A DNA stretch of 60,226 bases, the filler included, from Jimgerdemannia flammicorona (taxonomy: Eukaryota): the NCBI GenBank assembly GCA_003990765.1. It is 3 parts of 3 records of this genome, joined end to end, with 100 filler letters (N's around TTAATTAATTAA, not from the genome) between each part and the next. Parts side by side here need not be neighbours in the genome. Positions count along the whole stretch, not along the records: positions 40,226 to 60,226 come from RBNJ01001782.1; 2 more parts are not named here. One strand, written 5' to 3'. The notes below the pieces were generated by a model that was not told the origin of the DNA, searched no databases, and was given only the letters and a program-made list of their open reading frames with translations. Of the stretch, positions 6,084 to 58,916 are shown piece by piece (the first letter of the stretch is position 1; each line of letters begins with the position of its first letter). The position numbers and the translations under genes were made by a program.

Positions 6084-6507
6084 CTAATAGAATACTGCCA
6101 CAGCTCTCAAGATCATCAGTACTATACAGTGAGCTATAGAAAGACAATAGTATACTACTGAGCCACTGAATGGAAGAATCCTTTGATAGTATATAGAGTA
6201 TAGTTCAGATATACTTATCATAAATACATATCACACTTTAAAGCCTATCAGAACCAAATTGTACTAGGTCTCTTATGCTCAGATCATAATTACTGAATAA
6301 GTAGTCAATAAGATATTTAAGAATAATGAGTCAGCTCTAGCCCATCTTTGTAGAGTAGTTCCAGGAGACTTTGGATATATCAAAAGATACTACTGGGAAT
6401 ATGTAATGATACAAATTATATAGTACAAGGAGATACAAATTATAGAAGCTTAGAAGTTTGAATAGGATATTTCAGAGATGAATAATCTATTCAGAAGGAA
6501 GTTGTGA
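6076..6507 (+). pseudogene. Gy-A accessory ORF3 remnant (~143 codons), unknown function
   Basis: ATG overlaps the integrase stop; one frame to the LTR edge with only transition-type stops; contains VVNKIFKNNESALAHLCRVVPGDF, similar to the Gy-B LTR ORF. Confidence 0.65.
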
Positions 6508-7004: not shown

Positions 7005-7254
7005 TTATATAGTGTAATAGTGACTCCAGAATGATGACATCAGCACAGGAGACAGCCTTTTCTTGCAAGTCACCAGATTGGAGCACAAGAAGATCATATG
7101 GCATACAAGATGAGCAATGATAACCAACTGTGAGTTATTGTGACCACAGTACAAGCATCTTGAAGAATATAAAAGAAGGATCAAGAAACTGCAGTAGCAG
7201 CAACCAACAAGAACCATCAATCCCAAAATAGCTCAAAGACTTACCATAAACAAA

Positions 7255-8073
7255 ATGCCTGCTGCCTGCCAAACCTCAAGATCAAGGAATTACCAAGGTA
7301 TCTCAGTCAAGGAAAGAATGTTCCAAGACATCAGGAGAGCCATGGAGACCCACTCAAGAAGGACTCCTAGTGTCAACCTGAGTACTACAGACCCTTATCA
7401 CTTCATTCTCTACTGCCATGAAATAGAAACAAGGATCACCATCGCTACCAAATACCTCCAAATGTGGCAGGAGTACAAAATAGGAAACCTCCTCTGTCAA
7501 GAGTTCCCACAGGCCAGTACCCAAGAGCTACAAGATGCCACTCCCATAGATATATGTAAAATAAGGACAGCTAAGAAGATTTATCAGATCTTCAGACATG
7601 CATCATGGTCGATCCCCAACTTGGAGTATATTAGAATCTCAGACTTCAGAGACCTGTCATCTTGCTGTATTAATGCACTAAAAGCCAGGGTGGCTACAGA
7701 AGTCCAGTTCACTATCACTCTCAACAGTGAAGAAGTAGAAGACTTCTGGCACCCTATCCTTCAGGACAACTCAGACCAATTCCTACAAGGATTGATCTCA
7801 GTATTCCAAGGCCCAAGCATCCAGGTTAGACCTCCCCAAGACCCCACATTTGTTCCCTATTTTGTGGAAGAGAACCTTATAGACTGGAGAGCTCCAGATC
7901 TTGTTCCTAATTTCCCCGCCACAGCCATATGTGATGACATCATCAGCGATGATGTCATCCCATGTGACATTGAAGTATGCGAAACGTGCAACCTACATGA
8001 CAAGTTTGCAGATCTCATCTCCTTCAGTGATGATGATGATAAAGCCCCTATGATCGTGAACTTTCTGCTCTAA
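7255..8073 (+). CDS. 272-aa accessory protein of unknown function inside the putative LTR U3
   Basis: Uninterrupted ORF; the same frame continues upstream to the LTR edge through transition-type stops; similar to ORF3 remnants of Gy-A, Gy-C and Gy-D; acidic C-terminus. Confidence 0.7.
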   Translation: MPAACQTSRSRNYQGISVKERMFQDIRRAMETHSRRTPSVNLSTTDPYHFILYCHEIETRITIATKYLQMWQEYKIGNLLCQEFPQASTQELQDATPIDICKIRTAKKIYQIFRHASWSIPNLEYIRISDFRDLSSCCINALKARVATEVQFTITLNSEEVEDFWHPILQDNSDQFLQGLISVFQGPSIQVRPPQDPTFVPYFVEENLIDWRAPDLVPNFPATAICDDIISDDVIPCDIEVCETCNLHDKFADLISFSDDDDKAPMIVNFLL

Positions 8074-8085
8074 AAGTTCTTTGTT

Positions 8086-8215
8086 ACACTGGATAATGCC
8101 AGCACTGGTATTCTTATATAACACTAGATAATGTCAGCACTGGTATTCTGAGGTGATGCAAAATTATTCCAGCACCGGTATTTTGATGTGACACTAAATA
8201 ATGCCAGCATCCTGA
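8086..8215 (+). repeat. About four degenerate tandem copies of acactggataatgccagcactggtattc upstream of the TATA box
   Basis: Directly visible; enhancer-like position in the LTR. Confidence 0.75.
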
Positions 8216-8557
8216 ACCTATACAACCATCAGTGCCAGTCCTGGAACTTAGTAGTTTTAGTTATTGGAATTTATATTTAACTTTATATCTTAGCAACTAT
8301 TAAATTATATTTTATATAAATACCCCTCTTATTTCCTCTGAAATAAAGTCAGTTCCTCTCAGTACAATATACACACTTCCTTGTAAGCAATCTAAGAGAT
8401 AACAAGACAGTTAAAGATAAGAAGTTTGAGGACTATAAGACCTTAGGAAGGTACTCTAATAAGAACTTGCTTATAACAAACTTAAGTTAGTCTAAGAGAT
8501 ATACCTTGAAGAGAATCTGGTATATTTGAAGGACTCAGCGACTACTACATGACAACT

Positions 8558-17173: not shown

Positions 17174-17269
17174 TAGTGCTCTGAATGAGTCAATTCAAAT
17201 CAAATCTGGATTTGATTCATCACATGACAGTTTGATTTGAATCTCAAATCCAAAGCCATCCAAATCAAC

Positions 17270-28432: not shown

Positions 28433-28644
28433 TAAATATTATGAGCTCTACTAGTGACTGGGAAGCTGTATAGCTCAGTTAGTAAATACTAGTTAGTAGC
28501 TATAATATCTCTTATGCTGAGAAATATATCTGAGTCAGAGCACTAAGATGGGTATCTCTACAATAGACCCTGTTACAGAAAACACTGTCTTCACTATAAG
28601 TATAGTCAAAAGGACAATCTTAGATAAATTCAAGATAATAAACA

Positions 28645-29813: not shown

Positions 29814-29859
<46 letters not shown>
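28645..29859 (+). mobile_element. ~1.2-kb non-autonomous poly(A) retroposon, copy 1
   Basis: Long poly(A) tail; 15-bp TSD tcaagataataaaca at 28630-28644 and 29865-29879; end-to-end match to 41540-42893; no RT or other recognisable domain. Confidence 0.88.
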
Positions 29860-34700: not shown

Positions 34701-36704
34701 GTCAAAGAATTTGCAGAAGAAAGCAATAGTGAAGACTATAGTGACCTGGACTTGTACTCAGCCAAAGTCATCACCCAAAAGACAGTTTATCAGTAGAGAA
34801 AAGGAGGAGACCTATAGAAAGGCCATCCAGGAATACCAGCAGAAGAATTCAAGAGAAAGATAAAGAACATAAAGAGGAGTAAGTAGAAATACCTCCCCAG
34901 TCTCCTTCACTCTTTGTTTCTAAGACAAATGAGCTATCTCTAGAGAATGAAGAAATAAAGTAAAAAGAATAAAACCTGCTGCCCCAAGCCCAAGAAGAAG
35001 TATACCCCAAAGACCATGCCTAGAGATATCTACAATAAAGCCTGACAAAGATTCCAGGAGCCAAGATAGAAGTTCCTCTCCTATAGTTCCCATAACTAAT
35101 ATTAGCTGGAGTTCAAAATATATTACTGAGGCCCACCAGGTCTAGTACTAGCCAAGTTCCAATCCCACAGTAAGAGCTAGCTCCCACCCCTATCTAAGCT
35201 ACAGAGAGATATGTCAGCACCTATCTATATGGAGAATATTGGAGGACAAAAGATAAAAATTCTCATAGATACAGGAGCAGCAATCTGTATTATTGCCAAA
35301 TGATTTCTGGACACCCTCCAATGGCCCATTGATGGACCATCCAACCTCAGCATTATAGTAGCAGATGGAGTCCAAACTCAACCCCTTGGAGAAGTATGAA
35401 ATATCACCATCTCTCTTGGACACATTCAGTTCTCTATCCTGAAGGCTGTTGTCACTGATGCTGTCATCTATGACATGATTCTTGGCCCCAACTAGATGAA
35501 GGAAATAAATGCAGTTGTTGATATTGGTCAATAAGAACTTAAGTTTGACTACTGAGATAAGAAGCACAGAGTTAAGGTGACCAGCTATGAGCTATCAAAG
35601 AAGAAGAAGAAGGTCACTATTCAGGAAGAATTTACTAGCAGCAAAGAATCTACCATAGAAGAGGAAGAAGAATCTGAAGATGGAAATGATCCCAGACTAA
35701 ATCTCTGAATCAATCTGATAGATGATAGGCCAGAAGACAATGTATGGGCTAAGAACACCATCCCCATCACCATTGGAGCCATTGTAGGAGAAATCAAAAG
35801 ATGCCCCACCTGTCTCAAGAGACACAAGTGCTCAGAGCACTTCTCTAAGATCATTGGGACAAGGAATTTGCCTGGCACAGCCTGCCCCAAGTGCAGAAGG
35901 AAGAAGAACAAATGCAGACATGTTCCAGAAAACCTATAGCTGAAGCTGCAGAAGTACAAGCAATCTGGGGTCAAGAATCATCTGAGAAAGAAGAAATTCC
36001 TAAACAAGAGGTTCCCAAACAAGATGTACCTGAAGAAGAAGAGGTCTCTGAACATATCCCCTAGGATGATCCTCACCAGACACTACCCAAAGCTAATGAC
36101 CCATGGAATATAGAAGAAGGGCCCAGCACAATCCCTAATATTCCAAAGTAAGAAACTCACCTTGAAAGAGCCTTTCAGCTAGAAAGATGTCTATATCAAA
36201 TGGTCTTCCACTCTCCCCAAGACCACTGCTATCAGTACCATATACTGAAACAATAAGAAAGACAGAGACATAGATGATAAGGACTCTCAACCATAGTTAC
36301 ACAGTCAACTACCTTTCAAGAAGTTACATAAAGTTGCAAAGTCAATTTTGAGGACAAGGTCTCTTTACCTGAACAGAAGTATATCCCTAGGCCACCCTTC
36401 CCCCAACCTATGACGAAGATGGATACTGATTTTCAAAGCAGCAAGAAATCAACAACTGGGAATAACATTTTTGAGCAATGGGAGATTGTAGCCATAGTAG
36501 ACACTCAGATGGTTGAGACTGCAGACACCAGAAGATTCACCTCAGCCATGATATTGCAATTTACATCTTAAAGAGAGGAGATAACAGAGGTCCAATCTGA
36601 AAAAGCCAGACTAAGAAACCAGAAAGAAGTACCCTCAACATCTATAATTTGAAAGAAGACATCCTAGATCATCAGATATACAATCTGCTAAGGATGGATA
36701 GAAG
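31759..36704 (+). mobile_element. Gy-D copy 1: LTR (~31759-33010), gag, protease and post-protease region; interrupted by LINE C
   Basis: LTR ends tataaga / tcttaca; TATA ~32034 and aataaa ~32062; MATLLPTFAGYSEEDPREFLDGIE at 33715; knuckle FHCRQFGHYATE ~34578; ILIDTGAAIC ~35260. Confidence 0.82.
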
Positions 36705-39700
36705 ACATCTTTCTCCAGTAACATTCAGGTTACATAACTTTCTGGCAATACTTACAACACTATTTTTGGAGAAAAGATACTAGTATCATGGCAACCAATG
36801 AGCATTCTAAGGTGTGTGACCCTGGTGTATTTGACTGCAGTATGTGAGGAGGGGCCCCAGCTTGAGAAGAGGCATGAGGGGCCTACTGGCAGAAGGACAT
36901 GGTAGGGGAGAGGGCAGTGCTGACAGAGAGGGTGAGCTTCTTGGAGAAGGTGAAAGGGGGTCAGCAGAGAGTTGGGCTAGAGAGTTGGCTGAGGGGGGGT
37001 AAGGTGATGGGAGAGAGAGCCAGAGTAGTGAGACTGGTGGTGTAGTAGCTGAGAGGGTGACTGCTAATGGGAGTGTGATGGACAATCTGGAAAAAAATCC
37101 AGATGGGACTGCTGATAGTGTACTGAGTAGTGGGGTGGGCATGAGGCCTCTGATGGTATAATGGGACTGGTGGTGGTACTATTACTCAAGAAGTTGATCT
37201 CAAAATTCGCAGTCACCCTGTGCTTCAGGGGCTTAGTAGTGATGGTGAAAATGTTTCTGGGACTGATTGTGAAGCAGGTGGAAGACACAGCTTCAGTTAA
37301 GTTCTTGAAGGACCTGAAAGGGGTGGAGGTGGGCTTTGAGGAGGCAGGGCTACTAGAGAAGACACTGAAGGCTGGGTTGATAGTGAGGGAGGTATGTGTC
37401 CCAATAGCATGGTGCTTGAGATAGGACTCCAGAGTGGTGCAGTTCCTGGTGAAGGGAGTGTCTGCAGTGACTGCTGTGGAAACAAGGAGGAGAGTTGAGG
37501 AGGTCATGGCTGAATATAGAGAGATGGTCAATATAGAGTTTAGGGTCTGAGAAGGGACCACCTTTGGAACAGAGGATATTGATGTCCAGATTCAGCTGGC
37601 AGAGAGAGAGGCTACTGGCAGGGCATGTGATTGGCCTTCAGTGATAATGTGGGGAGCTTTTGTATGTAAGGTGATGAGAGTAAAGAGGAGTGAGGAGGAG
37701 GAGGAAGACCTGTTGGAGGTGCTGGAGGAGCTGAGTGATGTGGTAGAGTGAAGGGCAAAGTCTTGGAAGGTGTATGTGGAGTCAATATACTTCGAGATTA
37801 TTGATGGGAAGCAGGTCTGTATTGACAAGGGGCTGTGGAAGAGGACTCCAGGTCACAGAAGGCAGAGGGAGTTGCTGGTGAGTCTGGATGTAAAGAAGAT
37901 AAAGGCTGCTGATGGTAGTGAGGATGCTGAGGGAGCTTTGGCAAGTGTCTGGGCTGGGGGACAATGGGAGAATTTGGAGGTGGGTCTGGAGGAGGCCCAG
38001 AAGGCACTAAGCAAGGACTCATATAAAAAGTATGTTTGAAGTCTGGGAGCAATCTCCTACACCTTCCCCTCTGATGAGATGAGGACCAGCTGCAAGGGGC
38101 TAAGCAGCAGAGAATGTATTCATGTGTGGTATACTTTGGGATTCCTGAGGTGGTGAAAGGTGGACAAGTGGTGGCAGTTGGAGAGGAGGAACTGGTAGAT
38201 GTCCCAGAGGAGGGGTGGAATGAGACTGCAAGTGTGGGAGAGGCTATCTCAATGCTGAGTAGTAGATGGCCTGCGACCCCTGTGGGAAAGAAAGTGGGGA
38301 ATCTACTGTGAATGTGCCAGATGATAAATAATCTTATAGTGGAGGGGCTGGGAGAAGAGGACCTGAGAGTGATGAGTGATGAGCACTGGGTAAGGATCAT
38401 ATATGGTGATAGAGTGGTAGAGGTGTTGAGGGAGAGATACTGGTGGTTTTTCTGAAGGAGGAAGGGTATGAGCTGACCAAGGAGAGGGAGGCTGAGCTGG
38501 TGGTTATTGCTGGTGAGCAGGCCATTTACTGCTGGGGAAAGCATCATAGTTTACAGCTCTAGCAGGAGGCCTGCCTGGAGTATTGTGAGGATTTTGAGGA
38601 AAGGAGGATGGGGAAATGGCCGAGTTATTAGAGGGATTAGAAACCAAGAGGGCTGAGGAGAAGGTGGTGTCTGCTAAATACAACCTGGACTTGGTAAGAG
38701 AGGTGAGGGATATGGAGCAGTACAGGATGTGTTTTCAACTTTATAATATTTCTTATAAACAGTACAATCAACATTTTCTCTCTCAATATGAATAGGTGAT
38801 AGGGTTCATATCGGTGTCAGAACATTTTTGCTTGACTGAAGGAACTGGAGGCTGATCTCTTTCCTTTGCAGGATATCAGATGTGAGGATGATTTAGATAG
38901 ATAGGAGTGGACTAAGAAATGGTGAAGAGAGGCAGTATAGAAAGGCAAGATGGGGATTCTGGTGACTAGAGGGGGACTTGGGCTCATTGACTTCCTGAAG
39001 AAGTTGTACTGTCTGAGAGCATGGTGGCTGAAGAGGGCTGTTGAGCTAGAGGGTGGCAGCTGGGTTCCTCTGTTGAAGAAAGTCTGGAAGATGAGGTCCT
39101 CTTCAAGAGGATCCACAGGAGATCTACTATCCTGGTGAGGCTTCAGAATAATGAGCACATGTGGTATAAGGGCTTCTGGTGGGGAGTCACTGATGGGGTG
39201 CACTGCATAGACATTCATTGGCAGAGAGGTAAAGGAGAAAGGTATTGGGACCCAGTAATGTAGAGTGCTGCTGGGAGGTATTCAACTCAGAGACTTTGAT
39301 ATTAGTGCTAGGGTTGAGTGCTACAGTAAATTGGGGTAGGATCTGTTGCCTAGTAGATGGCAGTTGGTAGGTATTGGTGAAAAATGCAACTGGAACAGAA
39401 TATGGAACAGGAGTGCTGAGGTTCGGCAGTGGCTGCCCCCAAAGTATTAAGTGGTCTGGTGGTACATGTTGAGGAGAAATGTTATACTCAACTTTTGCAC
39501 TGGCCACCTAGTGGAAGGGAGAACATTTGACTGTGAGGAGTGCTATAATGTTGGACAGGAAGGGGGTTTTTTACAGATGTCTGAACATTGGCTAGGGGAG
39601 AGCAAGGTGCTCAGTGATTTCTAGATAGTGGTTGGGAAGAGATTTGATATTATGTGGAGGGGAGATGGTGTGAGGAATCAGTGGGAGGATTTGCCAGATA

Positions 39701-40125
39701 GATTGGTGGGAGGGAGTGGCAGACTTTAGGGAGGGTGTTGGCTGTATGGGTAGGGTTGGCAGGGCACTGGCTCTTTGTATTTGAGGATGGGAGACATCTG
39801 AGTTTAGAGGCATGACTGTTGCAATTGGATGGACTGATGGAGGATATTCTGAAGGGTTGGTGGCATGGGTGGAGACTGCAGGGTGGTTGGTGGCATTATT
39901 TCAGAGAAGATATGTAGACAGAGTGGGGGGAGAGTGGGGGTTATGGGAGATAGGGTGATTTTCAAGCACCAAGGGGTGGGGGGGAGGGGGTGGTTCTCTT
40001 AGGGAGATTAGGTAGCGGGAATATGGAGATTGGGTAGGGGGAGTATGGGGATTGGATAGTGTGAGGAAATAATGTAATCTAATATATAGACTGGTAATAA
40101 ATGAGGAGTCTTTAAAAAGAAAAAA
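36705..40125 (+). mobile_element. LINE copy C with a ~2.4-kb internal deletion removing RT
   Basis: Same 5' motif; ORF1 remnant; near 38960 the APE sequence GKMGILV joins directly to post-RT TRGGLGLIDF; A-rich tail at the contig end. Confidence 0.88.
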
Positions 40126-40256: not shown

Positions 40257-41539
40257 AAGACTGGAGAATAATTCAAGGTATATCTTTAGTGACTGAGCTA
40301 TTAAGTTAGTATATTATATAGCAGAGATCTCAAAAGAAACAGAAGTAAGCCTTTATAAGTATTCTTATATAACTTAACTATATACATATATTATGACAAG
40401 TAGCAGAAATTATACTACTAAAAAACATTATAACTATATATCATACTGAGTATATAAAAAACAGTCAAATATATCTGAGTATACAAAAAGACAATCAAAT
40501 ATATCTGAGCATACAAAAGACAGTCAAATATATTATATAATTAGCTAAACATATCAGAAAGAGTATCTATATAGAGTCTGAATACTTATATAGAATTAAA
40601 AATATCTTCTATAAATAGTCTTCTATAATTAGCCATATAGTAACTAGGTAGCAACCAACTTATATAAAATACCCCAGAGATAAGAGTGAATAAATCTTAG
40701 TTCAAAATTCAAAGTAAAAGATAAGTCTGCCTATCATACTTCAAGAGGAATTCTACAGCCACTGCTAGGAAATTGTGAGCTTACTTTCTACTCTGGTCCA
40801 CTTTTCAATACAAAGAAGAGTTTGTTATATTTTTAGTTCACTTGCTAGATAAGCCTGAAGAATCTGAGAAATCTACCAAGTTCAAGAAAGAACTTTGCTG
40901 TCATTTGAGAAGAATCTGCTATTTCTAGAAAAGTCTATATAAGAATCTTGTCACAAGCCAGTCTGTTGATGCAACTTTGCAATAGAGCCAGTCTATGATA
41001 TAACTCTGTGCAAATAAAGCTAGTCTTTGATATAACTTATCAAGAATCTACAATATTTAAGTTATCTAAGTTATCTACTATCTAAGTTATTTATCCATTC
41101 TTAGTGAGTCTAATTTAGAAGAATCTGTACTATTTGCTATTTTCAGAAAGCCACTAATTCAGAAGAATCCACACTCAAATTAAGTTAACTACTAAATTAA
41201 CAGACTATTATATATAAGAAAACTGCTATACTATATAAAAGATCATTATGTAGAAGATTATATACTTTTAGAAATATGATCATTATGTAGAAATTATATA
41301 CTTTTGGAGATCTCTATACTATATAGAAATTATTCATTAACCAAGAAGAAAAATATACAAAATCACTACTATACTCAAGAACTATCTCAATAAAGAAATC
41401 ACTTATAGATATTTAGCTTTGACTATTATACCACTAAATACCAAGAACCTCAGAAATTATAGAACATTTAATTACTTTTTGATAAAGTAACTGAGGGTTC
41501 AAGCCAAACTATATCAATCCCCAATCTTGTAATTTACCT

Positions 41540-42893
41540 TTATTTATTTATTTTATTTTATTTTATTTTTTTTAATGGACTCAATGTCTCACAGATTTTT
41601 ATTGGAAGGGAACCTAGACTATATAGGTCAAAACTCTCCCCCACTACTCATCAAGCACTGCTCCCTCATTAACCTAGGCTAGCTATTGTCCAGCAGCTTG
41701 ACCTAGTACTCTCAACAAATTGAATTGAATCAAATTTGGCCCAAACTCGATTCGATTCAATCGAATCAAGGGTCCAATTCGATTCGACTCATTTAACCCT
41801 CAATTCGATTTGATTTGAATTGATTTGACTCGTTTGAGAGCACTAGCTTGACCATATCAGGTGCAGCAGGGCCTATATTGGCCTGTACCTCATTCTATAT
41901 ACCATACTCTTCCTACTATCAGGAGGAATCCAGCCATATGCCAACAACTGAAAGCATATGTCCAAGACCCCAATGCATATATAAGACCATGCTCAAGCCA
42001 AATAGAATAGTCCCTGCCACCTCAAAGAGAATGATAGATAAAGAAAAAACTCTCATCAAAGTATATCATAGTGGATAGAGCCTAGTTCTCTCAGTTGAGA
42101 TAAGTAAAGAACTTATATGTGAGGTGAGAGAAGACCCCCAATATCCCACTACTCAAGCTTGTAGACCTTGATCATATTGCCATATCAGCTCCCAGTTTCA
42201 GTTGAGTGTAGCTAAGACACCTAAAATGGGTAGCCTCAGGCCCCCTGACCCCCTCCAATGACCAGGGCCTAATCTGCCAAATCACTAAAAGAAGCCAAGA
42301 GTGATACCTACTATCTAACTACTCTACATCAATCAAAAGGCCCCACTGAAGCAGTACCTACCCCAACCCCAATAACTGCCCCCAGCCTGGTACCCTACTG
42401 GTTCACCATAATTACCCTTCCTCCTATCTGTAATGACTATCTCTCCTCCCATTCTGACAACACCCAAAAAGCAGTCACCTATGTCAGAATTATGCTCACT
42501 GGGAAGCTTGCCAAAGCCAGAGGGCTCTACTATAGGTACTGAGGACCTGCAGATAACCTATACTGAGCACTTGATACCCAAGGTCAGCCAACTCTCTATG
42601 TATTCTGTGATACACCAAGACAGCACCTTGTTGGTGATGGCAAAAAGAAGAAGGCATTACATTAAAATAGATATACTTCAGATATAGCTGAAGGCACTAG
42701 AAACTATAAAAAAAGTGGAGAAGACACTGATCTGATACTGATAAAGGGGCAACTCATCACTATTGTCTTCCCCCGACTCTTACAATAGATACAGCAAACT
42801 AACCTGAGATAGAGAGAGTAATAGTTGTGGAAAGTAGACTCAGAAGGTTGCCTATCAAACTATTGTGCCTGGTAAGATAGCAGAGAAAGGGCA
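41540..42893 (-). mobile_element. ~1.2-kb non-autonomous poly(A) retroposon, copy 2 (carries a hAT MITE)
   Basis: T-rich tail at 41540; 11-bp TSD gtaatttacct / gtaatttatct; empty site in Gy-D copy 1 near 33076. Confidence 0.88.
41704..41845. mobile_element. 142-bp hAT MITE
   Basis: TIRs tagtactctcaa / ttgagagcacta; perfect 8-bp TSD gcttgacc; ttcga/ttga subterminal repeats; empty site in copy 1 near 29685. Confidence 0.95.
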
Positions 42894-43889
42894 GTAATTT
42901 ATCTCTATTGAGCTAGGTATACATATTATATTTGAAGGCTCAACTGGAAAGATTTCAAAATTGACAAGACTTTTCAGCTCACAAGAACTCACAGTCAAAC
43001 TGGATATATTTTATATAATACCAATCTCTGTCACTACAAGAGAACCAGTTGTCACTAGCATTTGGATAAAAAGAAAAGTAATTACTTCAAGACTTGCCAA
43101 CTACCCAGCATTAGAAGGATCCCAACCAGATACTAGTATAGCCTGAAATCCTCAATCAGATCAACTAGATAATATAGGTAGCTCTGTTGAAAACTTTGAA
43201 GAGCTTACACAAGAACTAGAAGATCTCATTACATGAGTTCAGTATCCTATAGCCAGATACCCCACAGAGGCCTCACTAATCTCACTCATTGAACCTTTAC
43301 CACCAGCTCTTGCAGAATTAGAAGTAGCTTCTTTAAGAATATCTAGGCTCATTCTACTTTATCTGAGGTCCATAATACCATTCTTAAGATACCCAAGCAC
43401 TCCCATCTCCAGTAATAGTTCAGAAAATGAACCAGAGTCAAAATCTGAATCAGAATCTGGACCAGAACCAGAATTAAAAGAAAGTGACAATAAAATGACC
43501 ACCCTATTGCCAATCTTTACAGAATATCCAGAGGAAGATCCTAGAGAATTCCTTGATAGAATTGAGGGAATTATAGCCCTGAGGAATCTTTCAGATAAAA
43601 GAAAAATTACTATCTATAAGGCCCAGCTCAGAGAACCAGTTAGAGGAATTTTCCACTGAGTAACAAATGACCAATATTTAGAACTTATAATAGAAATACA
43701 AGCAGCAGTATCTTATCAACTAGAATATATAGCCATGGTCTACTGACTTATTGAAAAATATACAGGAAATGAAACCTACCACAAGGCTCAATAGAAATAA
43801 AGATGAATATCAGAGAATTACCCAGAGAATTTTTTATCAGAATCCAGAAGAGAATATATACAATAGGATTTAGTGCTGCTAACCAAAAC

Positions 43890-44590
43890 TATAAGTGCAC
43901 AACCTCTAAGCCACCAAAATCGCATGGCATCCTCAGAACTAATTTGAAAACCACATGTGAGACTACAAAACAAGAGATCATCTGGTTACACGAAATATGC
44001 CAGCAAGCACAAGAACCCACTGCCAAGATACAAGAATACTAGAAAAAGTACTACAACCATAAGACTGACTCTGAACTGCTATAACTAGTTTGGTATACTA
44101 TACTATTACAAAAGGAAACCGAAAGTACCAAACTCAAATTGAGACAAGAAGAACTCTATCTCATCTACCAAAAGGTTCACGAACAGCACTTATCAACTCA
44201 AGACCAAGATATACTGTAAGACCTCATTACTTAGCAGAAGTAAAATGCATTTGAATAACTCTATTTGCTCTATCTGTATCACCTCCATTGGAGAGTGACA
44301 GATGCTTCATCTGAACTCAAGAAAGCCAACAACATTGAAACCAATCTCAAGCCATCCATGTCACAGATATTACTACTAGAAATTGTCTTGGATTACAGAA
44401 AATATCATTTCCAAAAGATTCGAACCCCCAGCCGTGACATTGAGAGCCCTCGCCCTAGATGAGAATGGCCAGTCCTTATAAATGTGCCAACAGACCAAAA
44501 AAAAAGAGAACCAAGACCTGTTACTCTTGTACAACCACCACCACCAAGAACAGCCTTAATCTTACAAGAGATAGAAGTGACGACACCTTG
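43890..44590 (+). pseudogene. Accessory ORF remnant within Gy-C U3 (also present in the 3' LTR)
   Basis: One frame from the first LTR base; stops at 44217, 44256 and 44460 are CAA in the 3' LTR; contains EELYLIYQKVHEQHLSTQDQDIL; 3' end approximate. Confidence 0.65.
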
Positions 44591-45348
44591 AAACTAATGA
44601 TGTCAGAAGTCAGAAAACTGCTCAGACTTTGCCAGTGATGATGTCATCAATAGTGATGTCATCAAAGACTACCCAGACAGTGCCTAAACCTATAAATAGC
44701 CTAAAACAGTCATAGTATAGTTAGATTAGCCTTGTACGATGTAACTGTGAACTGACTCAGCAGTCAGACAATCTCTTGACATATCAGATCACACTTGTAC
44801 TACATGACTGCATTCCAACTCAGCAAAGCACTTAGTGCTACATCCATATCTAGCATAGTCCAGATAGCCCCTCACTAGTATAAATACCCACTCCCCCAGA
44901 TCTAAACAGACTCAAATATATAAGAACATTTCTAAATACTTTCCTACAATATCCCTTCACATAACTACATATCATGAATAGCAAATAAACCTATTTAATA
45001 ACTCACAAATCACCCTTAAGTAAATCCACTACCCATTAGGTCCCACTCCTAACCCTGTCACGAAATTTCCTAATTGGGTATTGTCTGCAGCAAATATGCC
45101 AATTCAACTAAGCTGGTCTTAGTTTCTTGAACCTCCTGAAATATGGAAAATCCTAAACATCCAGAACTAGTCCGAAAAAGGACTTTGGTTGAGACGTCAA
45201 CCCGATCTTGAAATCAATAAGCATAGAGGACATACTCTATATGAAATTGATCTTAACCATAAGAAAACAGTCTTCCAGAATATCCAGAACCTCCAGAAAA
45301 CCTTTCCAGAACTATGTAATGGTTACCCTAAAAAGCAACCCTCTTACA
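43890..45348 (+). repeat. Gy-C 5' LTR
   Basis: Direct repeat of 48742-50201; TA (decayed TG)...CA; TATA-like boxes near 44691 and 44879. Confidence 0.95.
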
Positions 45349-45351
45349 ACT

Positions 45352-45360
45352 TGGTAGCAG
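45352..45360 (+). promoter_or_regulatory. Gy-C primer binding site, initiator-Met tRNA type
   Basis: tggtagcag 3 nt after the LTR; TGGTAGC is the usual iMet PBS start. Confidence 0.8.
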
Positions 45361-48300
45361 CAGTTTACAATCCAATTCCACTTCAAGATGCTTTCTCACC
45401 CCACTACAAACCCTTCTGAGAATTCCTACAAGTTGGTATAAAGCCCAACCTCTGAACTGAAATTTATCCTGAACTATCTAACAATCTGAAGAGAATTGAA
45501 CCTAATGTACAAGGACAATTTGACCTCCACATCTATAACAAGTGGGATAAACTTCATTCAAAGAAAGAAGTACTCCGGTTAAACCAGCAAATAGGTGAAA
45601 CCCTATTCACCGAACTCCTTGCACTACACCCAGCAAGTTAAGACGAAGAAGGTCTTATTGAAGCCTTTTTTACTCTTCTCAATAAGAGTTTTGTTAGCTC
45701 TACAAACCCGAGTGACCTAGGACAACCAGCAGCAGTCTTTCTAGCCTTAGTTCCTCATGAAGCCCAAGCCTCTGTAGCCAAGTGGCTCAACTCTACCGAT
45801 TTTCACCATACTAGGACCAAGACTGCATTATACTACTAATTCCAGAACAGCAAGGCCTGCCATATTCTTAAGGAAGAAGTAAGAGAAACCCTTCATCAAC
45901 TACCTGACCCCGAATCTGAAGCAGGCCCTGCTACAGCCCTATCTGAATCTGAAACCAATACTGAACCTGAACTTGACTTTGAATTAAGTCCATCTGAAAT
46001 CAGATATATAACTGATTCCATCTACTTTAATGCTGAGCAAACCCAATTACATGAGGACCAAACTGAAGAAGAGGAGGAGTATCTCAGTGGATTCAATCCT
46101 AGATACACCACTGAAGGAGAAGCACCTTCATCAGGATAGAATATACCTACACAGCAATAAATAGCTATCTATCAAGCCCTCACTCCAGACCCACAACTAC
46201 TATTCCAGCAACTTACACAGACCCAAAGAACTCTATCACACTCTGCACCAGTACCTCAAGTAGTACCAGTAACACTACTACTAGCAGCCCATCCACCTCT
46301 AGTAAACAACATGGCAAACCAACAGATTCTAGACCTCACAGCCCAGGTAGCCATAATGGCAGCAACCATTACTGTCTTAGCTGAACAGACCCAACCTACC
46401 AAAAATCTGAGTCTATCTACCTTCAATAGTACTACACAAGAAGTCCAAAGCTTCATTAGTATAGTTGACACCAACTTCGAAGCCAATCAATGGATCAATG
46501 AGCAAGTTGCTGACTGCATTCTGACAAACAATCAAGACCATACTCTGGAACAACTCTTTGCTACAACTACAGCCTATGTCTGCTGAGTTGTTACATTCTT
46601 CCAAGGACCTGCCAAAGAATAGTGGCAAACCCTTCCTGAAAAACCCCTCACATGGGATACCCGATCTGCAGTAGTTGCTCAGAATGCAGCAAACAATGCC
46701 CCAGGATATGGAGCCCATCCTGCAGCCCCTAGACTTAAATAACTCATGATTGCTCAATACTGCAGTGAAACCATGATTGCCAAATCTCGAGTAAAACTCT
46801 GCAACCTCAAATTTGATGTATATGGCAAAGAAGAATTTGAAACCTTCTGTACAAAACTTGAGTCACTCCTGAACACTGTTGGTCTAGGATATATTGCCAA
46901 TGATAAAGCATGAAATTGTACAAGAGCAGACCATTTATTCGATGCCCTGCCCAAATGGCTTATTAGAAAAATCTGAGAACAAGGCCACCCAGTTGGTTGT
47001 GATCACCAACAATGGTGCCTAGCAAGAATCAAGACCATGGTCAAGTGAATCCTAACAGCTGGACCAATTCTGCCCTAAAGACAATTCAACAATAAGGAAA
47101 AGACTTGGACCAAGAAAGAAGAACCCAAACATGAAGTATCCCAAGCTCCCTCCACATCCACCTCTTGGACACCCAGAAATCATGAGCCCACTCAACCGAG
47201 TACCTCCAAGAAACTTACTGAAGGCGAAAAGAATGAACTTTGAAGAAGCAGAGTATGCTTCTATTGCCAAAAGACAGGACATATGGCCAGTGCCTGCCCT
47301 AACCAAAAACCCCAAACAGCAACAAGAGCAACTGTTACTACTCTGCACCACCTCAACAACCTGACCACCAGAACACTAGACTTTGTGAAGTTAAGATAAA
47401 CTGCTAAGGCCCCAACCAAAGGAAGCCAAAAAGCAGCTGGATATGACCTGTATACAGCCGAAGAAGCTATAGTTTCCAACCGAGAAGTCAAACAAGTCTA
47501 CACAGAAATCAGTATCCAAATCTCTGAAGGATATGTTAGAAGAATATGCTGTTGCAGCAGCCTAGCATTGAAAGGACTCTCAGTAGAAGGAGGAGTCATT
47601 GATGAGGATTACACAGACGAAATTATTATCCTCATCCGAAACCACAGTTAGATACCCTTCAAGATCCCTATTGGTTTCTGCATCACCCAGATCCTATTTG
47701 AAAAAATTGAGTCAACCCTGACAGTCAAGGAAGTCCCTGAACTACTGCCCACCATCTGAGGATCCAAAGGATTTGGCTCATCAAACAAGGCCCCAGCCCA
47801 ACCTACCATGAGCAAAGAAGAATAATTCTATAAGAAGATCGAAGATGGATATGTACCAAGTGGCTGATGCCCTCATAGCATTGGAATGTACTCTTCTCGA
47901 ATGATTGATGATTGCTTCTCTTGTATCAATGAACTGGCACAAAGAAGAACCAATAGAAGGAAAGCTTCTACAACTGAAATCACCACCATTGGATCAGACA
48001 AACTGCTCACACTTAAGGCTTTTGTCAACCGAGCACCTGTCAAGATTATGATAGACAGTAGTGCCTCAGGCAACTTCATCAGTGAAGAGACAGCCAACAG
48101 ATTTAAGGTCTTCACCTCTCCAGTATAACAAACTCAAGCAGTTGCTACAGCTGATGGAACCTCACATGTTATTAGCAAAGAAGTCTGCAATCTACCCTTC
48201 TGAATTGGTGACTACCAAGTACATGTTACCCTCCAGATTGTACCACTTCCTGACAACAAAATCATCCTTAGAACCCCATGGTTAAAACAAGAGAACCTCA

Positions 48301-48727
48301 TGATCGATTGGATAAACTATTCTCTGACCATCAAGAAAGGATGCCATAACTTCAAACTACAAGATGAAAAGGACCCACTTAATTCTGGTGACCCTAGACC
48401 AAAGATCACCCTTATCAACAAGCTACAACTCAAGAAATTGGCCAAGAAATGCCCTCTCTTCACCATCTCCATCTGCCCATCCAAAGGAGAACCTGAGAAC
48501 TCTGAAGAAGATTTTTCCAAAGTTGACAGCCATGTCAGACCACTACTCCAGAAAGCCCAAGACACATTTCTGAACCGAACCACAGAATCACCTATATCTG
48601 TCATTATTAATGACTAAGAAGAATACAAAGTTGAACAAATCCTCAACAAACACAGCCACAAGAACCATCCAAATGGTACAATAACACCAGAACAAATTAG
48701 AAGGCCCTGATGAGGATATCGAAAGCT

Positions 48728-48741
48728 AAGAAGGGGAGAGT
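48728..48741 (+). promoter_or_regulatory. Gy-C polypurine tract
   Basis: aagaaggggagagt immediately before the 3' LTR TG. Confidence 0.88.
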
Positions 48742-50201
48742 TGTAAGCACACAACCTCTAAGCCACCAAAATCGCATGGTATCCTTAGAACTAATTTGGA
48801 AACCATATGCGAGACTACAAAACAAGAGATCATCTGGTTACATGAAATATGCCAGCAAGCACAAGAACTCACTACCAAGATACAAGAATACTAGAAGAAG
48901 TACTACAACCATAAGACTGACTCTGAACTGCTATAACTAGTTTGGTATACTGTACTATTACAAAAGAAAACTGAAAGTACCAAACTCAAATTGAGACAAG
49001 AAGAACCCTATCTCATCTACCAAAAGGTTCATGAATAGTACTTATCAACTCAAGACCAAGATATACTGCAAGACCTCATTACTTAATAGAAGTAAAACAC
49101 ATTTGAACAACTCTGTTCACTCTATCTGTGTCACCTCCGTTAGAGAGTGACAGATGCTTTATCTGAACTCAAGAAAGCCAACAATGTCGAAACCAATCTC
49201 AAGCCATCTACATGACAGATATTACACTAGAAATTGCCTCAGATTATAGAAAATATCATTTCTGAGAGGTTCGAACCCCCAGCCATGATATTGGGAGCCC
49301 TCACTCTAGACAAGAATGGCCAGTCCTCACAAATGTGCTAGCAGACCAAAAAAAAAGAGAACTAAGACCTGTTACCCTTATACAACCACCACCACCAAGG
49401 ATAGCCTTAATCTTACAAGAGATAGAAGTGATGACACCTTGAAACTAATGATGTCAGAAGTCAGAAAACTGCTCAGACTTTGCCAGCAATGATGTCATCA
49501 ATAGTGATGTCATCGAAGACTACCCAGACAGTGCCTAAACCTATAAATAGCCTAAAGCAGTCATAGTATAGTTAGATTAGCCTTGTATGACAGACTATGA
49601 ACTGACTCAGCAGTCAGACAATCTCTTGACATATTAGATCATACTTATACTACATAACTGCATTCTGACTCAGCAAAGCACTTAGTGCTACATCTATATC
49701 TAGCATAGTCCAGATAGCCTCTCACTAGTATATGTAAATACCCCCTCTCCCAGACCTGAACAGACTCGAACACATAAGAACATTCCTGAATACTTCTCTA
49801 CAATATCCCTTCATATAACTACATATCATGAATAGCAAATAAACCTATTCAATAACCCACAAACCACCCTTAAGTAAATCCACTACCTGTTAGGTCCCAC
49901 TCCTAACCCCATCACGAAATTTCCTAATTAGGTATTGTCTGCAGCAATACGCCGATTCAACTAAGCTGGTCTTAGTTTCTTGAACTTCCTGAAATACAGA
50001 AAATCCTAAACATCCAGAACTAGTCCGAAAAAGGACTTTGGTTGAGATGTCAACCCGATCTTGAAATCAATAAGCATAGAGGACATACTCCATATGAAAT
50101 TGATCTTGACCATAAGAAAACAGTCTTCCAGAATATCCAGAACCTCTAGAAAACCTTTTCAGAACTATGTAACAGTTACTCTAAAAAGCAACTCTCTTAC
50201 A
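48742..50201 (+). repeat. Gy-C 3' LTR
   Basis: tgtaag...cttaca inverted termini; followed by the TSD. Confidence 0.95.
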
Positions 50202-51501
50202 AAAACATTATAGGTCTAATGATCTTTATGAATGGAATTCTCCTGAATATTGCCCAGTATGTCTGTACTCTAGATATCAGAAGATCTGAGGAATAAGTAG
50301 ATATAGTCTAAGGATTCTTTGATATCAGATAAGGAACTACCTGGAGTGATTATAACAAGAAGGATGACAAAAAAGACATCCTGGTCAAAGCCCTGCAAGG
50401 ACTCCTCCAAGGACAGAAGAGATCTGAAGAAAGAAGACCAGCCAAAGAAAGAAAGAAGGACAGAAGTGAAATTCAAAACTTCAGCTCTAAGTTGGATCAA
50501 TTGGTTGGATAGATTAAAAAACTCACCACATGTAAAAATTGGAGTTATTAACAGAACAATAGAGGATATCTACTACAGAGCAACCAAGGTTATCTACTAA
50601 GAGATAATAGGAACTATCAGTAAGAAGAAAGAAGATACTCTATCAGAAACAGAGCCCAAGTCTAATGCTTTTACTGTGGACAATTAGGACACTATATCAC
50701 TGAATGTAACAACAAAAGAAGTGATCAAAGAGACTCAGAACCACCAAACTGAAGGAATGAAACCCAGTACAAGAAGACTGAAGCTCACCCTGTTGAAGAA
50801 TTTAAGGAAGTGACCTAGACTTATACTCAGCCAAAGTCAGCACTCAAAAGATAGTTTACCCAGTAGAGAAGAGAAAGAGACCTATAGGAAGGCCATCCAG
50901 AAATACTAGCAGAAGAATTTAAGAGAAAGATGAAGAACATAAAGAGGAGTAAGTAGAAATACCTCTCCAGTCTCTCTTATCTTTTATCTCTAAGATAAAT
51001 GAGCTGCCCCCAGAGGATGAAGAAATAGAGCAAAAAGAATGGGAACCTACTACCCCAAAACTCAAGAAGAAGTATATCCCAAAGATCATATCTAGAGATA
51101 TCTATAATAAAGTCTGGCAAAAGATTCAAGAAGTCAAGATGGAAGTTCCTCTCCTGTAGTTCCTGCAACTGATACCAGCTAGAGTCTAAAATAAATTATT
51201 GAGAACTACCAGATCTAGTACTGGTCAAGTACCAATTCTACAGCAAGAACCAGCTCCCACTCCTATCCAAGCTATAGAGAGACATGACAGCACCTACCTA
51301 CATAGATATATTGGAGGACAAAAGGTGAAAATCCTCATAGATATAGGAGTAGCTATCTGTATCATTGCCAAATAATTCCTGGATATCCTCTAATGGCTCA
51401 TTGATGGACCATCCAATCTCAGCATCATAGTAGCAGATAGAGCCTGAACTCAACCTCTTGGAAAAGTATGAAACATCACTATCTCCCTTGGATACATTTA
51501 G

Positions 51502-51578
<77 letters not shown>

Positions 51579-51677
51579 GTCTCTTGGACTCCGTCTTTAT
51601 TATCAGTCTATGAATAAGTATACAATATAACCACCCACTAACCAATCCCCATTGGGGGGCCCCACCCCACCTCCTCA

Positions 51678-54600
51678 CATATAAAGACCACCCTCTCACC
51701 AACAACTCCAACTCTCCCACCACTCTGACCACAGATTTTCACCACTAAGTGGCGCCTCCAACCCCCCAGCATCCCCCAGCCAAGCCACTATCCCATCAAG
51801 GTATCTTCCATAAGGAACTGCCACCTTGCTAACTGGCTCCCCAAGCTCTGTCGCTTCTCCTCCTCAAATACAAATAGCCAGTGTCCGGCCAGCCCAACCC
51901 AAATAGCCAATGTCCAGCCTAGCATAACCCACTCTTCCCCTACCCCTCCTATCAATCGATCCCTGAGGTCCTCCCACCTCCCCCATACATCATCACCCCT
52001 ACGCCTTACCCCCAAGCGGTTCCCAATGGCCTGCCAAAAGTCTCCCAACACCTCACACTCCCCTAGCCAATGTTCTGGCATCTGTACCAATCCCCCTTCC
52101 TGCCCTACATTATGGTACTCCTCGCAGTCAAAGCAGCCCCCAACAACAAGGTGTCCTGAGTGGAAGTTAAGCATTACATTCCTCCTCAGCACACGCCACC
52201 AGACTATCTAGTACTTCGGCGGTATCCAGTTTTTCACTGTGGCACTCCAGTTCCAAACCCCATGCCAGTCCTACTCCTCACCAATTCCAACTCTTTGCCA
52301 ACCGCTAGGCCACAGATCCTGGCCCGGTCCCCTTTGGCATTCGATGCCATCACTTATGCTGAACTCCAGTAAAGGCACGCCTCCCAGAAGAATGCTATCC
52401 CATCTCTACATCGCCGGGCCCCAAGCCCTCTCCCTCTCATCCCCTCGCTAGCGAATACCAATGCGGTGTGCCCCCTCAGCTATACCCCACCAGAAGCCTT
52501 TATATCTCAGTTGCACAGTGTTCTGAAGCCCAACCAATGAAAGAAGATCGCCAGTCAAGCCTCTAGGTGATGTCCTCCCCTCCCATATCTTCTGCAGCAA
52601 GGGGACCCAGCCCCCTCCATGCAACTCCATCGCCCTCCTCAGCCACCAAGCCCGCAAGTAGTGTAGTCTTTTGGGGAAGTCCACCAGCCCAAGACCACCT
52701 CTAGTCACTGGTAGAGACAGAGTCTCCCAACCAATCTGACTCTGTCTGCCAGCCCAAATCCATCCCTTGGCCACCTTCACCAATCTCTTCACCACCCAGG
52801 CTGGGAAGTCCAGATGATAGGCCAAATACCACAGCTTCGGTAGCCAGTAAACATTCAAAATCGAGATCCTTCCTGCCAGAGAGAAGTGTCTACCTCCCCA
52901 ACCCCGCAGGTCTTCCTCCCAAATTCTAATCCTCTGCTCCCACCACAGCCTGGGCAAAACAGACCCATAGACCAACAAATAGATGCCCAAGTACTGCACT
53001 ACCTCTCCAGTGGGGACAATTGTCCCAATAACTTCCCCACCCACCAAGCCATTGCCCAGCACCATTGTCTCACACTTGTGCCAATTCAGCTTTGCCCTAG
53101 AGTTCGCCTCATACCACTCCACTGTCTTCTGGAGCTCCTTGACATCCGCAGTCACCCCCAAACTGACCACCATGTCATCTACAAAGGCTCCAACCTTCCA
53201 GCCAATTCCATAGATAGATAGCCCCACGATCCTCTGCCGAATCCTGTCCATGAGAGGTTCCAAGGAAAGAGCATACAAAATGGGGGACAGTGGGTCCCCC
53301 TGGGGCACTCCCTTGCCCAGAGGGAAGGCTACCCCTCGATGTCCATTGTACACCAGCACAGCCCTACTCCTTTCCAGTAGACTGACCATTGCTGACCGAA
53401 ATGAGGCTGGAACTCCAATCCTATCCAATACTTTCACCAGCCAGACCCACCATACCCGGTCATAAGCCTTCTCCTGATCCAAGAAGACAAGATGCCCATC
53501 TAGTCCACAGGCTCGAGCACCTTCAATAACTCCATATACCCAGGCCGTGCCATCTCTGATGAGCCGACCCCCGATGAAGCCCCTCTGTTCAACACCCACA
53601 ATCTGCTGGGCCACCTTCTGTAGCCTCACGACTACCACCTTAGTCACCAACTTCCTGTCCATATCTAACAGCATTATCGGCTGCCAGTTCCTCCAATCCT
53701 CTCGCCTTCCCTTGTTCTTATAGAGCAGTGTCACCAGTCCAAGGTCTTGCTCCCCCACCCATCTCCCTGACTGCAATATAGAGTCACACAGTGCTGTCAA
53801 CTCCCCCAATATGCCCGGGACTCCAACCATTCGCTTCCAGAAATCCCAGGGGAGGCCATCCTCCCAGCACCGTGCCCGAGGCTGTCGCGGCAAAAACCTG
53901 GTGGATCTCATCCTCCTCTACTGGCATCACCAGATCACCTAGTCCCTCAGCTTACGGTGGGTGCCAATCTTCTAATGTTTGTTCAATGGCTGTAGCATCT
54001 GCCCCACCCTCCTCCTCACTCCACAATCCACTCCATCGTGCCTTCAGCATTCCAAGGATATCCTGTACACCATGCACTAGTACATCATCTGAGTCAAGTA
54101 CCCCTTCCCACCACTGCTGTACCCTTCTCGCCCGAAGTATCCTTGTGAGAAACTTGGAAGGCCTCTCCCCTTCCTCCACCCCCTGCTAGCAAAGCCGAGC
54201 CACCAGGCCCCGCACCCTTGACTCTTCCTCTTCCCGCAGCACCTGTTGCAGTTCCCCAACCTCCATCCTTACCCTCGTAATTCTCCAATCCTCTTCTCCC
54301 TCTACTGCAGCCAGTCTCGCCCACTCCTCCAGAAGCCTAGCCAATCTAGTAGAAGCCCAATGTACTTTCTGCCTTCGCTGCTTCCCAGCCACTCTGCCAA
54401 CCTCACTCCAATACATCCTGGCCATCTCTTTCATCCTCATCCACCGAACCCCAATCACTGCCCCTTCCTGCTGCCAATTTGCCACCTTCAGCTGAATGTC
54501 TTTCGCCCACTCCTCCCATCAGACCTCATCATCCAACAAGGAGGAATTCAGGTGCCAATGTCCAGGCCCATCTCTACTTCCCCCAAAAAACCCCTGTCCC

Positions 54601-55292: not shown

Positions 55293-55322
55293 ATTAAAAT
55301 ATGGTTTGTTCCTGATCAATCC

Positions 55323-57353: not shown

Positions 57354-57436
57354 GATACTAGTAGCTTTTCTCCAGAAACTGTGTCGAAAGTGTTGCCAAA
57401 GGGTTGTGTAACCTGAATGTTACCGGAGAAAGGTGG

Positions 57437-58916
57437 TGGTATCATAGATTCTTCCTGAATCAGTAGGCTTCTGGGAATAATAACTCAGCAGTTCTTCTGA
57501 GAATAGTAGATGGTGCAGATTCTTCTAAATCAGCTCACTAGGAACAAACTAATAACTTAGATAGCATAGATTCTTAGCAAGTTACATCAAAGACTGGTTT
57601 CATTTGTGCAGAGTTACATCATTAGACTGGCTCTACTGTGAAGTTGCATTAACAGACTAGCTTGTAGCAAGTAAGGCAGACTTTCTAGAAATATGGTGAA
57701 TAACTCAAAGAGTAGCAAAGTTCTTTCTTAAACTTGGCAGATTTCTCAGATTCTTCAGGCTTATCTGATAAGTGAACCAAAAACATAACAAACTCTTCTT
57801 TATATTAGAAAGTGGACTAAAGTAGAAAGGAATACTTTGCTCACAATCTCCTAGCAGTGACTGTAGAGTTTCTCTCAAGGTAAACAGACTTGACTTTTGC
57901 TTTGGATTCAATTCAGACTAAGGTTTATTCATTCTTATCTCTAGGGTATTTTATACAGTTGTGGTTGCTACTGGTTACTACATTGCTAACTATAGATTGC
58001 TAACTATGGCAAGTATTCCTTGAGAGTACAGTATATCTTGAGAGTATGGTATATCTTGAGGGTATAGTGTATCTGGAGAGTATAGATAAACATACTGTTT
58101 CTGGTATCTCTGGCTAAATATACAGGTTGGTGCAGTAAAGCAGTCTTAGTTACTTAGTATACTAGATATAGTATATGGCTAATTTATGATTTCAGCAATA
58201 CAATTCTGTTGCTCATCACATCAGCTCCCACTAAAGGATAGTCTACCCTCAGATAATCCTTTAGTCATCATCTCAATGTGCATAAGCATCTTCAGTATCA
58301 ATATCTGAATCAGTATCTTCATTTGAATCAGAGTCACTCCATTCAACAGATTCTTCTTCTTTCTTTAGAAACAGGATCTCAACATGGTTGATTATGCTCT
58401 AGTAGATAATAGGATTCATGTTTTGAATATTATTCAGGAGGAATTGTGCCTGTATCAATACTGGCACATTTTATTTGTAGATTGTATATAATCTGTCTGC
58501 AGCAGTAGTATTTTTCTGGGTGAGGCCAATGGAGTTTCTGATGTAGGTTAGGTCTGTTGCTGAGAGGTTCTGCAACTATTCTCTAATTACATAGTAGGCC
58601 TGTAGCTGGTGGACTTGTAGTAAACATCTGACCAAGGTGAGGTTCTCTTGATGGGTCTGGATTTACTGAAGGGGATTTCTGTTGGCTTGTTGGAATTGTG
58701 GAAGGGAAACTGGGAGTGATTGGAATGAACTCAGAATAAAAGTCTAGAGGTACTGGGTTTATGATGAGAGAGATATATCTTGAAGCAGTTGATGTATACT
58801 AGTATTCTGAGGGTCTATCCATTCATGCTTTTTAAATAGATGCTGGTTCCTCTGATATTGTGTACAAGATAAGGTCCTTTCCATTTGGGCTCTAGTTTGG
58901 CAGCAAAATTTATCTC
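57437..58916 (-). mobile_element. Gy-D copy 3, 3' fragment: integrase tail, accessory ORF and 3' LTR (starts 58220)
   Basis: 57437-57980 is the reverse complement of Gy-D LTR sequence; TG start at 58220; AAKLEPKWKGPY near 58900. Confidence 0.8.
58261..58740 (-). pseudogene. Gy-D accessory ORF remnant (~160 codons)
   Basis: One frame: NPLQ*IQTHQENLT...QLQAYYVIRE*LQNLSATD...TQKNTTAADRLYTIY, then an Asp/Glu-rich tail. Confidence 0.65.

Follow-up and report, generated by a model that had tools for sequence, protein, structure and literature searches.

Gy-C element and its insertion site

The window, i.e. the whole analysed stretch of 60,226 nucleotides from Jimgerdemannia flammicorona (GCA_003990765.1), is composed of three contigs, which are separated by runs of N at about 20.0 and 40.1 kb, and is strongly depleted in CpG. 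The region 43890-44590, assigned in the initial annotation to an accessory ORF inside the U3 of an LTR, is the first part of the element Gy-C (43890-50201, 6.3 kb). The following features of Gy-C were located.

43885..43889, + strand: left copy of the TSD, AAAAC, 5 bp
43890..45348, + strand: 5' LTR, 1459 bp, defined by the pairwise LTR alignment and family copies
44691..44989, + strand: candidate promoter and polyA motifs of the LTR, TATA boxes at 44691 and 44879 and AATAAA at 44984, with putative function
45352..45363, + strand: PBS, after the 5' LTR
45351..48698, + strand: a single 1116-codon frame with 22 stops, comprising an N-terminal part without assignment, Gag with a CCHC knuckle, dUTPase, protease and a chromodomain remnant
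48730..48741, + strand: PPT, directly before the 3' LTR
48742..50201, + strand: 3' LTR, sharing an 8-nt deletion with the 5' LTR and having an extra 1-nt deletion at ~49225
50202..50206, + strand: right copy of the TSD, AAAAC

The TSD-bounded LTR pair reported earlier was thus confirmed, together with its PBS and PPT; the PBS is presumably of the initiator-tRNA type. The two LTRs were 91.7% identical, and 111 of the 115 substitutions separating them were transitions. The target of the insertion was a Gy-D-like element; a paralogue in the window (33076-34087 and 34117-35435) matched both flanks and was uninterrupted at the site. Since the TATA and AATAAA candidates are all situated downstream of 43890-44590, this stretch would belong to U3, as judged from the motifs alone.

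The family alignment included 81 distinct Gy-C copies, the best-scoring of some 2500 candidates. Of these, 51, obtained from 60 loci after the removal of 9 duplicate or partial ones, were those nearest to the window copy; the other 30 were nearest to an older copy and were heavily decayed. The LTR ends were identical in the 30 loci covering the end, with the PBS behind 5' LTRs and the PPT ahead of 3' LTRs. The 51 copies were sorted into 14 5' LTRs, 13 3' LTRs, 11 solo LTRs with a TSD and one unclear case, and the retrieved locus lacked the end in 12.

Downstream of a fixed stop at 45168, which lies within the LTR, the gag frame stayed open across the PBS (45170-46310). Its first ~320 codons had no conserved Met, yet the coding z of 45351-46100 was 5.7; the position-3 bias was weak (19, 20 and 25 variants at the three positions). 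A start at a non-AUG codon or by splicing is possible. The 3' end of the LTR as a coding part of this frame under selection was rejected, as no position-3 bias was detected there.

Reading frame at 43890-44590

The frame of the 5' LTR starting from 43893 contained seven internal stops (44040, 44082, 44217, 44232, 44241, 44256 and 44460), and its sole Met was located at 44358 with no earlier start codon. One further feature determined its continuity:

44216..44217, + strand: site of the 8-nt deletion, found in both LTRs of the window Gy-C only, 2 of 81 copies

As this deletion is private to the window insertion, the annotated frame is a fusion of two family frames. The stops at 44232 and 44361 were carried by 80 of the 81 copies. 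For 44040 and 44082 the counts were 61 and 70 of the 81, and many of the older copies lacked them (11 and 20 of 30). The longest stop-free run in Gy-C copies had a median of 70 and a maximum of 92 codons.

The initial annotation had referred to three stops of the 5' LTR (44217, 44256, 44460) being sense codons in the 3' LTR and had concluded that the ancestor was more open. The aligned sites in the 3' LTR are indeed not stops; the site of 44460, however, lies beyond the frameshift of the 3' LTR. Among the 51 copies these stops were present in 10, 7 and 15, respectively, which corresponds to ordinary decay. The 3' LTR was itself no more open: before its 1-nt deletion (aligned to 44374) it had eight stops compared with six in the 5' LTR, and four of the eight, all ahead of this frame-ending deletion, were its own.

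Frameshifting indels, which the initial annotation had named as refuting its ORF, were found in the 81-copy alignment. Of the 18 shared indel classes, some of them homopolymer slips, just 2 were multiples of three, as were 2 of the 29 single indels, and the 24 copies of the older subfamily shared 1-nt indels near 44088, 44122, 44170 and 44351. Codon position 3 contained 28 of the 97 shared non-CpG variants (p 0.85), and the distribution in the older subfamily was flat too. The codon usage of the two joined frames was weakly coding, with z values of 1.9 and 1.7 vs 3.6 and 6.0 for true ORFs. In database searches, none of 107 candidate public proteins matched the frame at E<=1, none of 114 metagenome stretches was confirmed, Pfam gave no family for Gy-C frames, and BLASTP gave no match between this frame and the Gy-B ORF described below. 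An antisense ORF was also considered and rejected due to 12-14 majority stops in each minus frame.

The stretch 43890-44590 is no maintained gene, and it was never selected as a protein after its capture. That it was a single accessory ORF, open in the family ancestor, is highly improbable. The protein-like character of the frame, the lack of stops 44040 and 44082 in many older copies and the polymorphism of the three cited stops are in accordance with such an ORF, but its continuity hangs on a deletion of two copies in 81, its shared indels rarely keep the frame, no start precedes 44358, its 5' half corresponds to integrase (see below) and no public homologue was found.

Autonomous parent family C2

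A sister family, C2, was found to have LTR ends, PBS and PPT of the Gy-C type and an LTR of 2.07 kb. One complete C2 element contained RT, RNase H, integrase, SH3 and a chromodomain. By the order of its domains (PR-RT-RH-IN) and its C-terminal chromodomain, C2 is a dUTPase-bearing chromovirus. The identity between C2 and Gy-C was 90.5% over 44633-48506, and no alignment was obtained over ~43990-44632. The shared parts of the LTR are the following.

43890..43990, + strand: LTR start common to Gy-C and C2, from nhmmer (homology reaching to LTR nt ~82-107) and blastn (nt 1-48 at 79-83%), right edge approximate
44633..44688, + strand: what remains of the C2 LTR gene, its last 19 codons, with which two CRE-like TGAYRTCA boxes (44639, 44654) overlap

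In Gy-C, RT, RNase H and integrase were deleted at ~48570-48573. Same-strand Gy-C LTR pairs within 10 kb were spaced 4.7-4.9 kb in 20 of 24 cases and never more than 6.1 kb, indicating that the family was amplified in the deleted form. Gy-C is a non-autonomous derivative with the LTR ends, PBS and PPT of the autonomous C2.

The gap in the alignment with Gy-C was occupied in C2 by a 365-codon ORF present in both LTRs. In the 30 C2 copies studied the ORF lay wholly inside the LTR; nine were 5' LTRs, nine 3' LTRs and eight solo LTRs with a TSD, and for four the end was not retrieved. No stop was common to more than 16 of the 30 copies, compared with 13 and 14 stops in at least 28 of 30 in the other two frames. 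Position 3 contained 134 of the 250 shared variants (p 4e-11). Pfam gave no family for the C2 ORF.

The leader ahead of the C2 ATG was rich in indels, unlike the ORF. Near the C2 LTR start (nt 18-113; L096-L125) a ~31-nt tandem duplication was observed that is lacking in Gy-C. A complete C2 element was also found inserted, with a 5-bp TSD, beside the AATAAA of an older Gy-C 3' LTR (L127 1-185, L126 5316-5500, L103 3232-3937), which means that Gy-C-type LTRs existed when C2 was still active.

Accessory genes of Gy-B, Gy-A and Gy-D

Three other Gypsy families of the window contained related ORFs, located as follows.

7013..8554, + strand: Gy-B 5' LTR, 1542 bp, with ends determined from 30 loci; full elements have LTR pairs 7.2 kb apart
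7168..7174, + strand: TATA-like box inside the LTR, found in 29 of 30 copies and situated 87 nt ahead of the ATG of Gy-B, a candidate promoter with putative function
7255..8073, + strand: accessory gene of 272 codons, intact and contained completely in the Gy-B LTR
6130..6507, + strand: relic of the Gy-A accessory ORF, located between integrase and LTR and ending where the latter starts, with an approximate left edge
58260..58770, - strand: relic of the Gy-D accessory ORF, immediately following the integrase tail and preceding the LTR, edges approximate

These positions agree with the layouts proposed in the initial annotation, i.e. an ORF within the LTR in Gy-B and ahead of the LTR in Gy-A and Gy-D. 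Two further proposals, that each insertion carries two copies of the gene and that solo LTRs retain it, hold for the LTR genes of Gy-B and C2, with selection detected in both, and fail for the Gy-C stretch.

In 30 Gy-B copies (12 5' LTRs, 9 3' LTRs, 7 unclear, 2 without a retrieved end) the ORF kept its frame length in 27 and its ATG in 27; eight copies were stop-free, and no stop occurred in more than six. Position 3 contained 68 of 117 shared variants (p 3e-8). The synonymous fraction of shared variants was 60/117 in Gy-B and 124/250 in C2, that of private variants 35/125 and 66/194, respectively (Fisher p 2e-4 and 1e-3). The LTR genes of Gy-B and C2 are under purifying selection.

TATA and AATAAA motifs were also found after the stop of the Gy-B ORF; an upstream TATA-like box as conserved as that of Gy-B was not seen in C2 (8 of 30 copies). 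As read from such motifs, the LTR gene is possibly expressed from its own promoter within the LTR, with the expression and the limits of U3 being predictions.

Five public proteins matched the Gy-B ORF at 61-83%. The profile search listed six representatives, one of which (P0018) is a likely repeat artefact, and accessory homologues persisted down to 24% identity. Neither the Gy-B ORF nor the distant homologue P0016 was assigned to a Pfam family, and the ESM Atlas gave only unnamed clusters at 0.85-0.91. The ORFs of Gy-A, Gy-B, C2 and Gy-D matched each other weakly over a core of ~110 residues; the E values of the Gy-B profile were 2e-5 with C2, 5e-4 with Gy-A and 1e-3 with Gy-D (Z=100), and some pairs were not significant. 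The maximal Kyte-Doolittle 19-mer of the accessory proteins was 0.59-1.05 in eight of eight, so that no hydrophobic or transmembrane segment is present and the env-like class does not apply to any of the eight. The Gy-B and C2 families had acidic tails with net charges of -7 to -39, and the AlphaFold model of the Gy-B ORF had a mean pLDDT of 37.9. The LTR genes of Gy-B and C2 are predicted to encode a soluble protein with a helical core of ~110 residues and an acidic tail.

Some minor features of these LTRs were also observed. CRE-like TGAYRTCA boxes (7035, 7935, 7950, 44598, 44639, 44654) were conserved in Gy-B, C2 and Gy-C LTRs and were coding at the ORF tails. The PPT was nearly identical in Gy-A and Gy-B, and the accessory frame of Gy-A crosses the PPT to terminate within the initial bases of the LTR (6490-6507). 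In Gy-D, the integrase frame continues open for a long distance, and the accessory ORF overlaps this continuation (58260-58800, - strand), a possible dual coding.

Integrase tail in the Gy-C LTR

The origin of the sequence occupying the place of the C2 gene in Gy-C was determined with profile searches, and it was divided into two segments.

43960..44250, + strand: decayed C-terminal tail (GPY/F region) of the integrase of a non-chromodomain Gypsy resembling Gy-D, edges approximate
44250..44632, + strand: segment absent from the C2 parent, without a match to the parent or to the accessory profiles (which are weak among true members), codon-usage z 1.7

The nhmmer DNA profile of the 81 Gy-C copies matched Gy-D loci at the end of integrase with LTR nt 116-288 (best E 8e-6). 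When 20 Gy-D integrase tails were combined into a protein profile, the window LTRs scored 17.6 and 24.2 bits in the annotated frame, and all 81 Gy-C copies exceeded the shuffled-null maximum of 3.6 bits. In the reverse test the older-subfamily profile matched over ~80 residues (E 2e-10; six frames, 132 loci). The median scores were 31.9 bits for Gy-D (20 tails), 14.3 for Gy-B (11), 13.7 for Gy-A (19) and 0.2 for the C2 parent (9), the last value ruling out the parent's own integrase as the source. The hhalign comparison of the Gy-C fragment with integrase tails resulted in 96.5% and E 7e-10.

The homologous tail of Gy-B was in frame with Pfam rve and H2C2. In the single Gy-D frame scanned, no upstream Pfam match was obtained and the tail itself was a weak match to MLVIN_C (E 0.006). 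The GPY/F motif is a hallmark of Gypsy integrase C-termini, according to the consulted parts of two papers (PMC2836005, PMC3601003). Pfam named no family for the decayed window fragment, and the integrase-tail alignment gave no match among 1276 in the longer-protein search and none confirmed among 598 metagenome stretches. As these public searches were empty, the assignment is based on profiles derived from the Jimgerdemannia sequences themselves. A search for the donor family was unsuccessful; Gy-D is the nearest of the families compared, and 48 more Gy-D-like LTR loci gave only Gy-D-type tails.

By these profile matches 43960-44250 is the C-terminal integrase tail of a Gy-D-like Gypsy, not an accessory gene. 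The initial annotation was right in so far as the stretch looks once-coding, but what it coded for was an integrase tail and not an accessory protein; the call at 43890-44590 is corrected to an integrase scrap. The following segment, 44250-44632, is probably donor sequence from behind integrase.

This segment might also be the donor's accessory ORF, captured together with the integrase tail and now dead, which would show the entry of a gene into an LTR and would leave the assignment of the 5' half unchanged. The ORFs of Gy-A and Gy-D sit right behind the integrase tail, and 44250-44632 has the matching position, about the matching length and the weak coding z. However, no frame of the 51 and 30 Gy-C copies scored above shuffled controls with the Gy-A, Gy-B, C2 and Gy-D ORF profiles (the same profiles being weak among true members, where three of six pairs reached only E 0.04-0.11, so that a remote relic may escape them), the stops at 44232 and 44361 are nearly fixed and position-3 bias is absent. 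A dead accessory gene is consequently considered possible but the less probable identity of the segment.

Origin of Gy-C and the role of the LTR gene

We propose, with a probability of about 85% for the reading as a whole, that Gy-C is a derivative of C2 which arose by a deletion in pol and by the replacement of the LTR gene with a piece of a Gy-D-like 3' end. One change was an internal deletion in a C2 ancestor that removed RT, RNase H and integrase. In the other, ~1.25 kb of the C2 LTR, including the gene except its last 19 codons, was swapped for ~0.65 kb of the 3' end of a Gy-D-like Gypsy. The most likely route of the swap may be a template switch between co-packaged RNAs in reverse transcription, and a single event in the 3' U3 would then reach both LTRs one round later. 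That the two LTRs of the window copy have the private 8-nt deletion in common suggests that one 3' U3 change was copied to both in such a manner. The captured piece would serve as filler, separating the promoter half from the LTR tip, which is required for integration.

A nested insertion of a Gy-D-like element into a C2 LTR, followed by two deletions leaving the integrase tail and flank, would give a similar result. Nesting is common here, as Gy-C resides in a Gy-D-like element and C2 in a Gy-C LTR, but this route requires three events and the same orientation, compared with one or two steps by template switching, and no donor LTR end or TSD was seen. It is therefore regarded as rather unlikely.

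Gy-C provides a natural experiment. This high-copy family lost the LTR gene yet spread to many copies, and thus does not require it in cis. Gy-C presumably borrows the LTR-gene protein, RT and integrase from C2. The LTR gene itself is a putative trans-acting helper, a role that we favour by a small margin, and it may act in RNA handling or against silencing in a heavily methylated genome. It is improbable that the LTR genes of Gy-B and C2, although real, have a function in cis or owe their maintenance solely to a second role of the sequence as enhancer: the ORF tails do overlap the conserved CRE-like boxes and precisely that part was kept in Gy-C, but the synonymous bias extends across the whole frame, the indels keep the frame and the homologues reach down to 24% identity.

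The integrase tail in U3 implies that coding sequence from the 3' end of another lineage can enter an LTR. A wider and speculative view, which we hold with less conviction than the helper role, is that the Gypsy U3 is an exchangeable cassette in this genome. The accessory family would reside behind integrase or in the LTR according to lineage, and Gy-C would be a snapshot of such a move. Gy-B solo LTRs, with their own TATA, start codon and polyA signal, might be stand-alone genes supplying a trans factor for anti-silencing or RNA export to defective elements. If expression from solo LTRs is true, such remnants would be protein-coding, contrary to the assumption in TE annotation.

Comparison with known elements

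Genes inside LTRs are better known from a few retroviruses. The sag of MMTV is an ORF in the 3' LTR, and Sag is described in the consulted parts of two papers as a type II membrane protein (PMC2191060, PMC2191119). Gy-B and C2, though not the annotated Gy-C stretch, resemble MMTV sag in having a protein gene inside the LTR which is duplicated with it. In contrast to MMTV, as far as covered by those parts, Gy-B and C2 are Ty3/Gypsy elements without env and their proteins are without a hydrophobic segment; the likeness concerns the layout only and no homology is claimed.

Sense accessory ORFs of LTR retrotransposons are placed in the internal region, between pol and the 3' LTR, by the consulted part of a review of such ORFs, and many are env-like with transmembrane segments (PMC7264820). 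Gy-A and Gy-D share exactly this layout and have a homologous core between them, whereas the genes of Gy-B and C2 lie inside the LTR. A gene wholly inside a Ty3/Gypsy LTR was found neither in the consulted part of this review nor in literature searches, which does not prove its absence from print.

PosPlaTy3-3 of Postia placenta, an example of the dUTPase-bearing fungal chromoviruses whose Pol has dUTPase on its N-terminal side and a chromodomain integrase, fits C2; in contrast to C2 and Gy-C, no LTR-internal gene or non-autonomous derivative is described in the consulted part of that paper (PMC2864245). The non-autonomous, Gag-only TR-GAG elements, according to the part of the source consulted, were amplified without RT and integrase and kept gag like Gy-C, but Gy-C additionally has dUTPase, protease, a chromodomain remnant, a length of 6.3 kb and a foreign LTR piece (PMC4350172). 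Two further systems are analogies only, each taken from part of its source: CERV of C. elegans Cer1, a non-env extra Gypsy protein acting on the element RNA (PMC10309623), and bdelloid elements, whose ORF3 types are common to distant lineages (PMC5408684). Unlike the genes of Gy-B and C2, neither is described there as LTR-internal.

Other repeats in the window

Strongly GC-skewed element copies with poly(T) ends, probably LINEs, interrupted the Gypsy elements at 13177-17174, 22413-28238, 36706-39964, 51516-57435 and 59051-60210; the copy at 51516-57435 was the richest in CpG and retained long ORFs. Another element with poly(T) ends, ~1.2-1.4 kb in length, was present as two inverted copies at 28644-29849 and 41539-42895 with 82-87% identity. 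An array of 14-bp units with an internal period of 7 bp was located at 17235-17580, and a similar short array was observed near 41740-41830.
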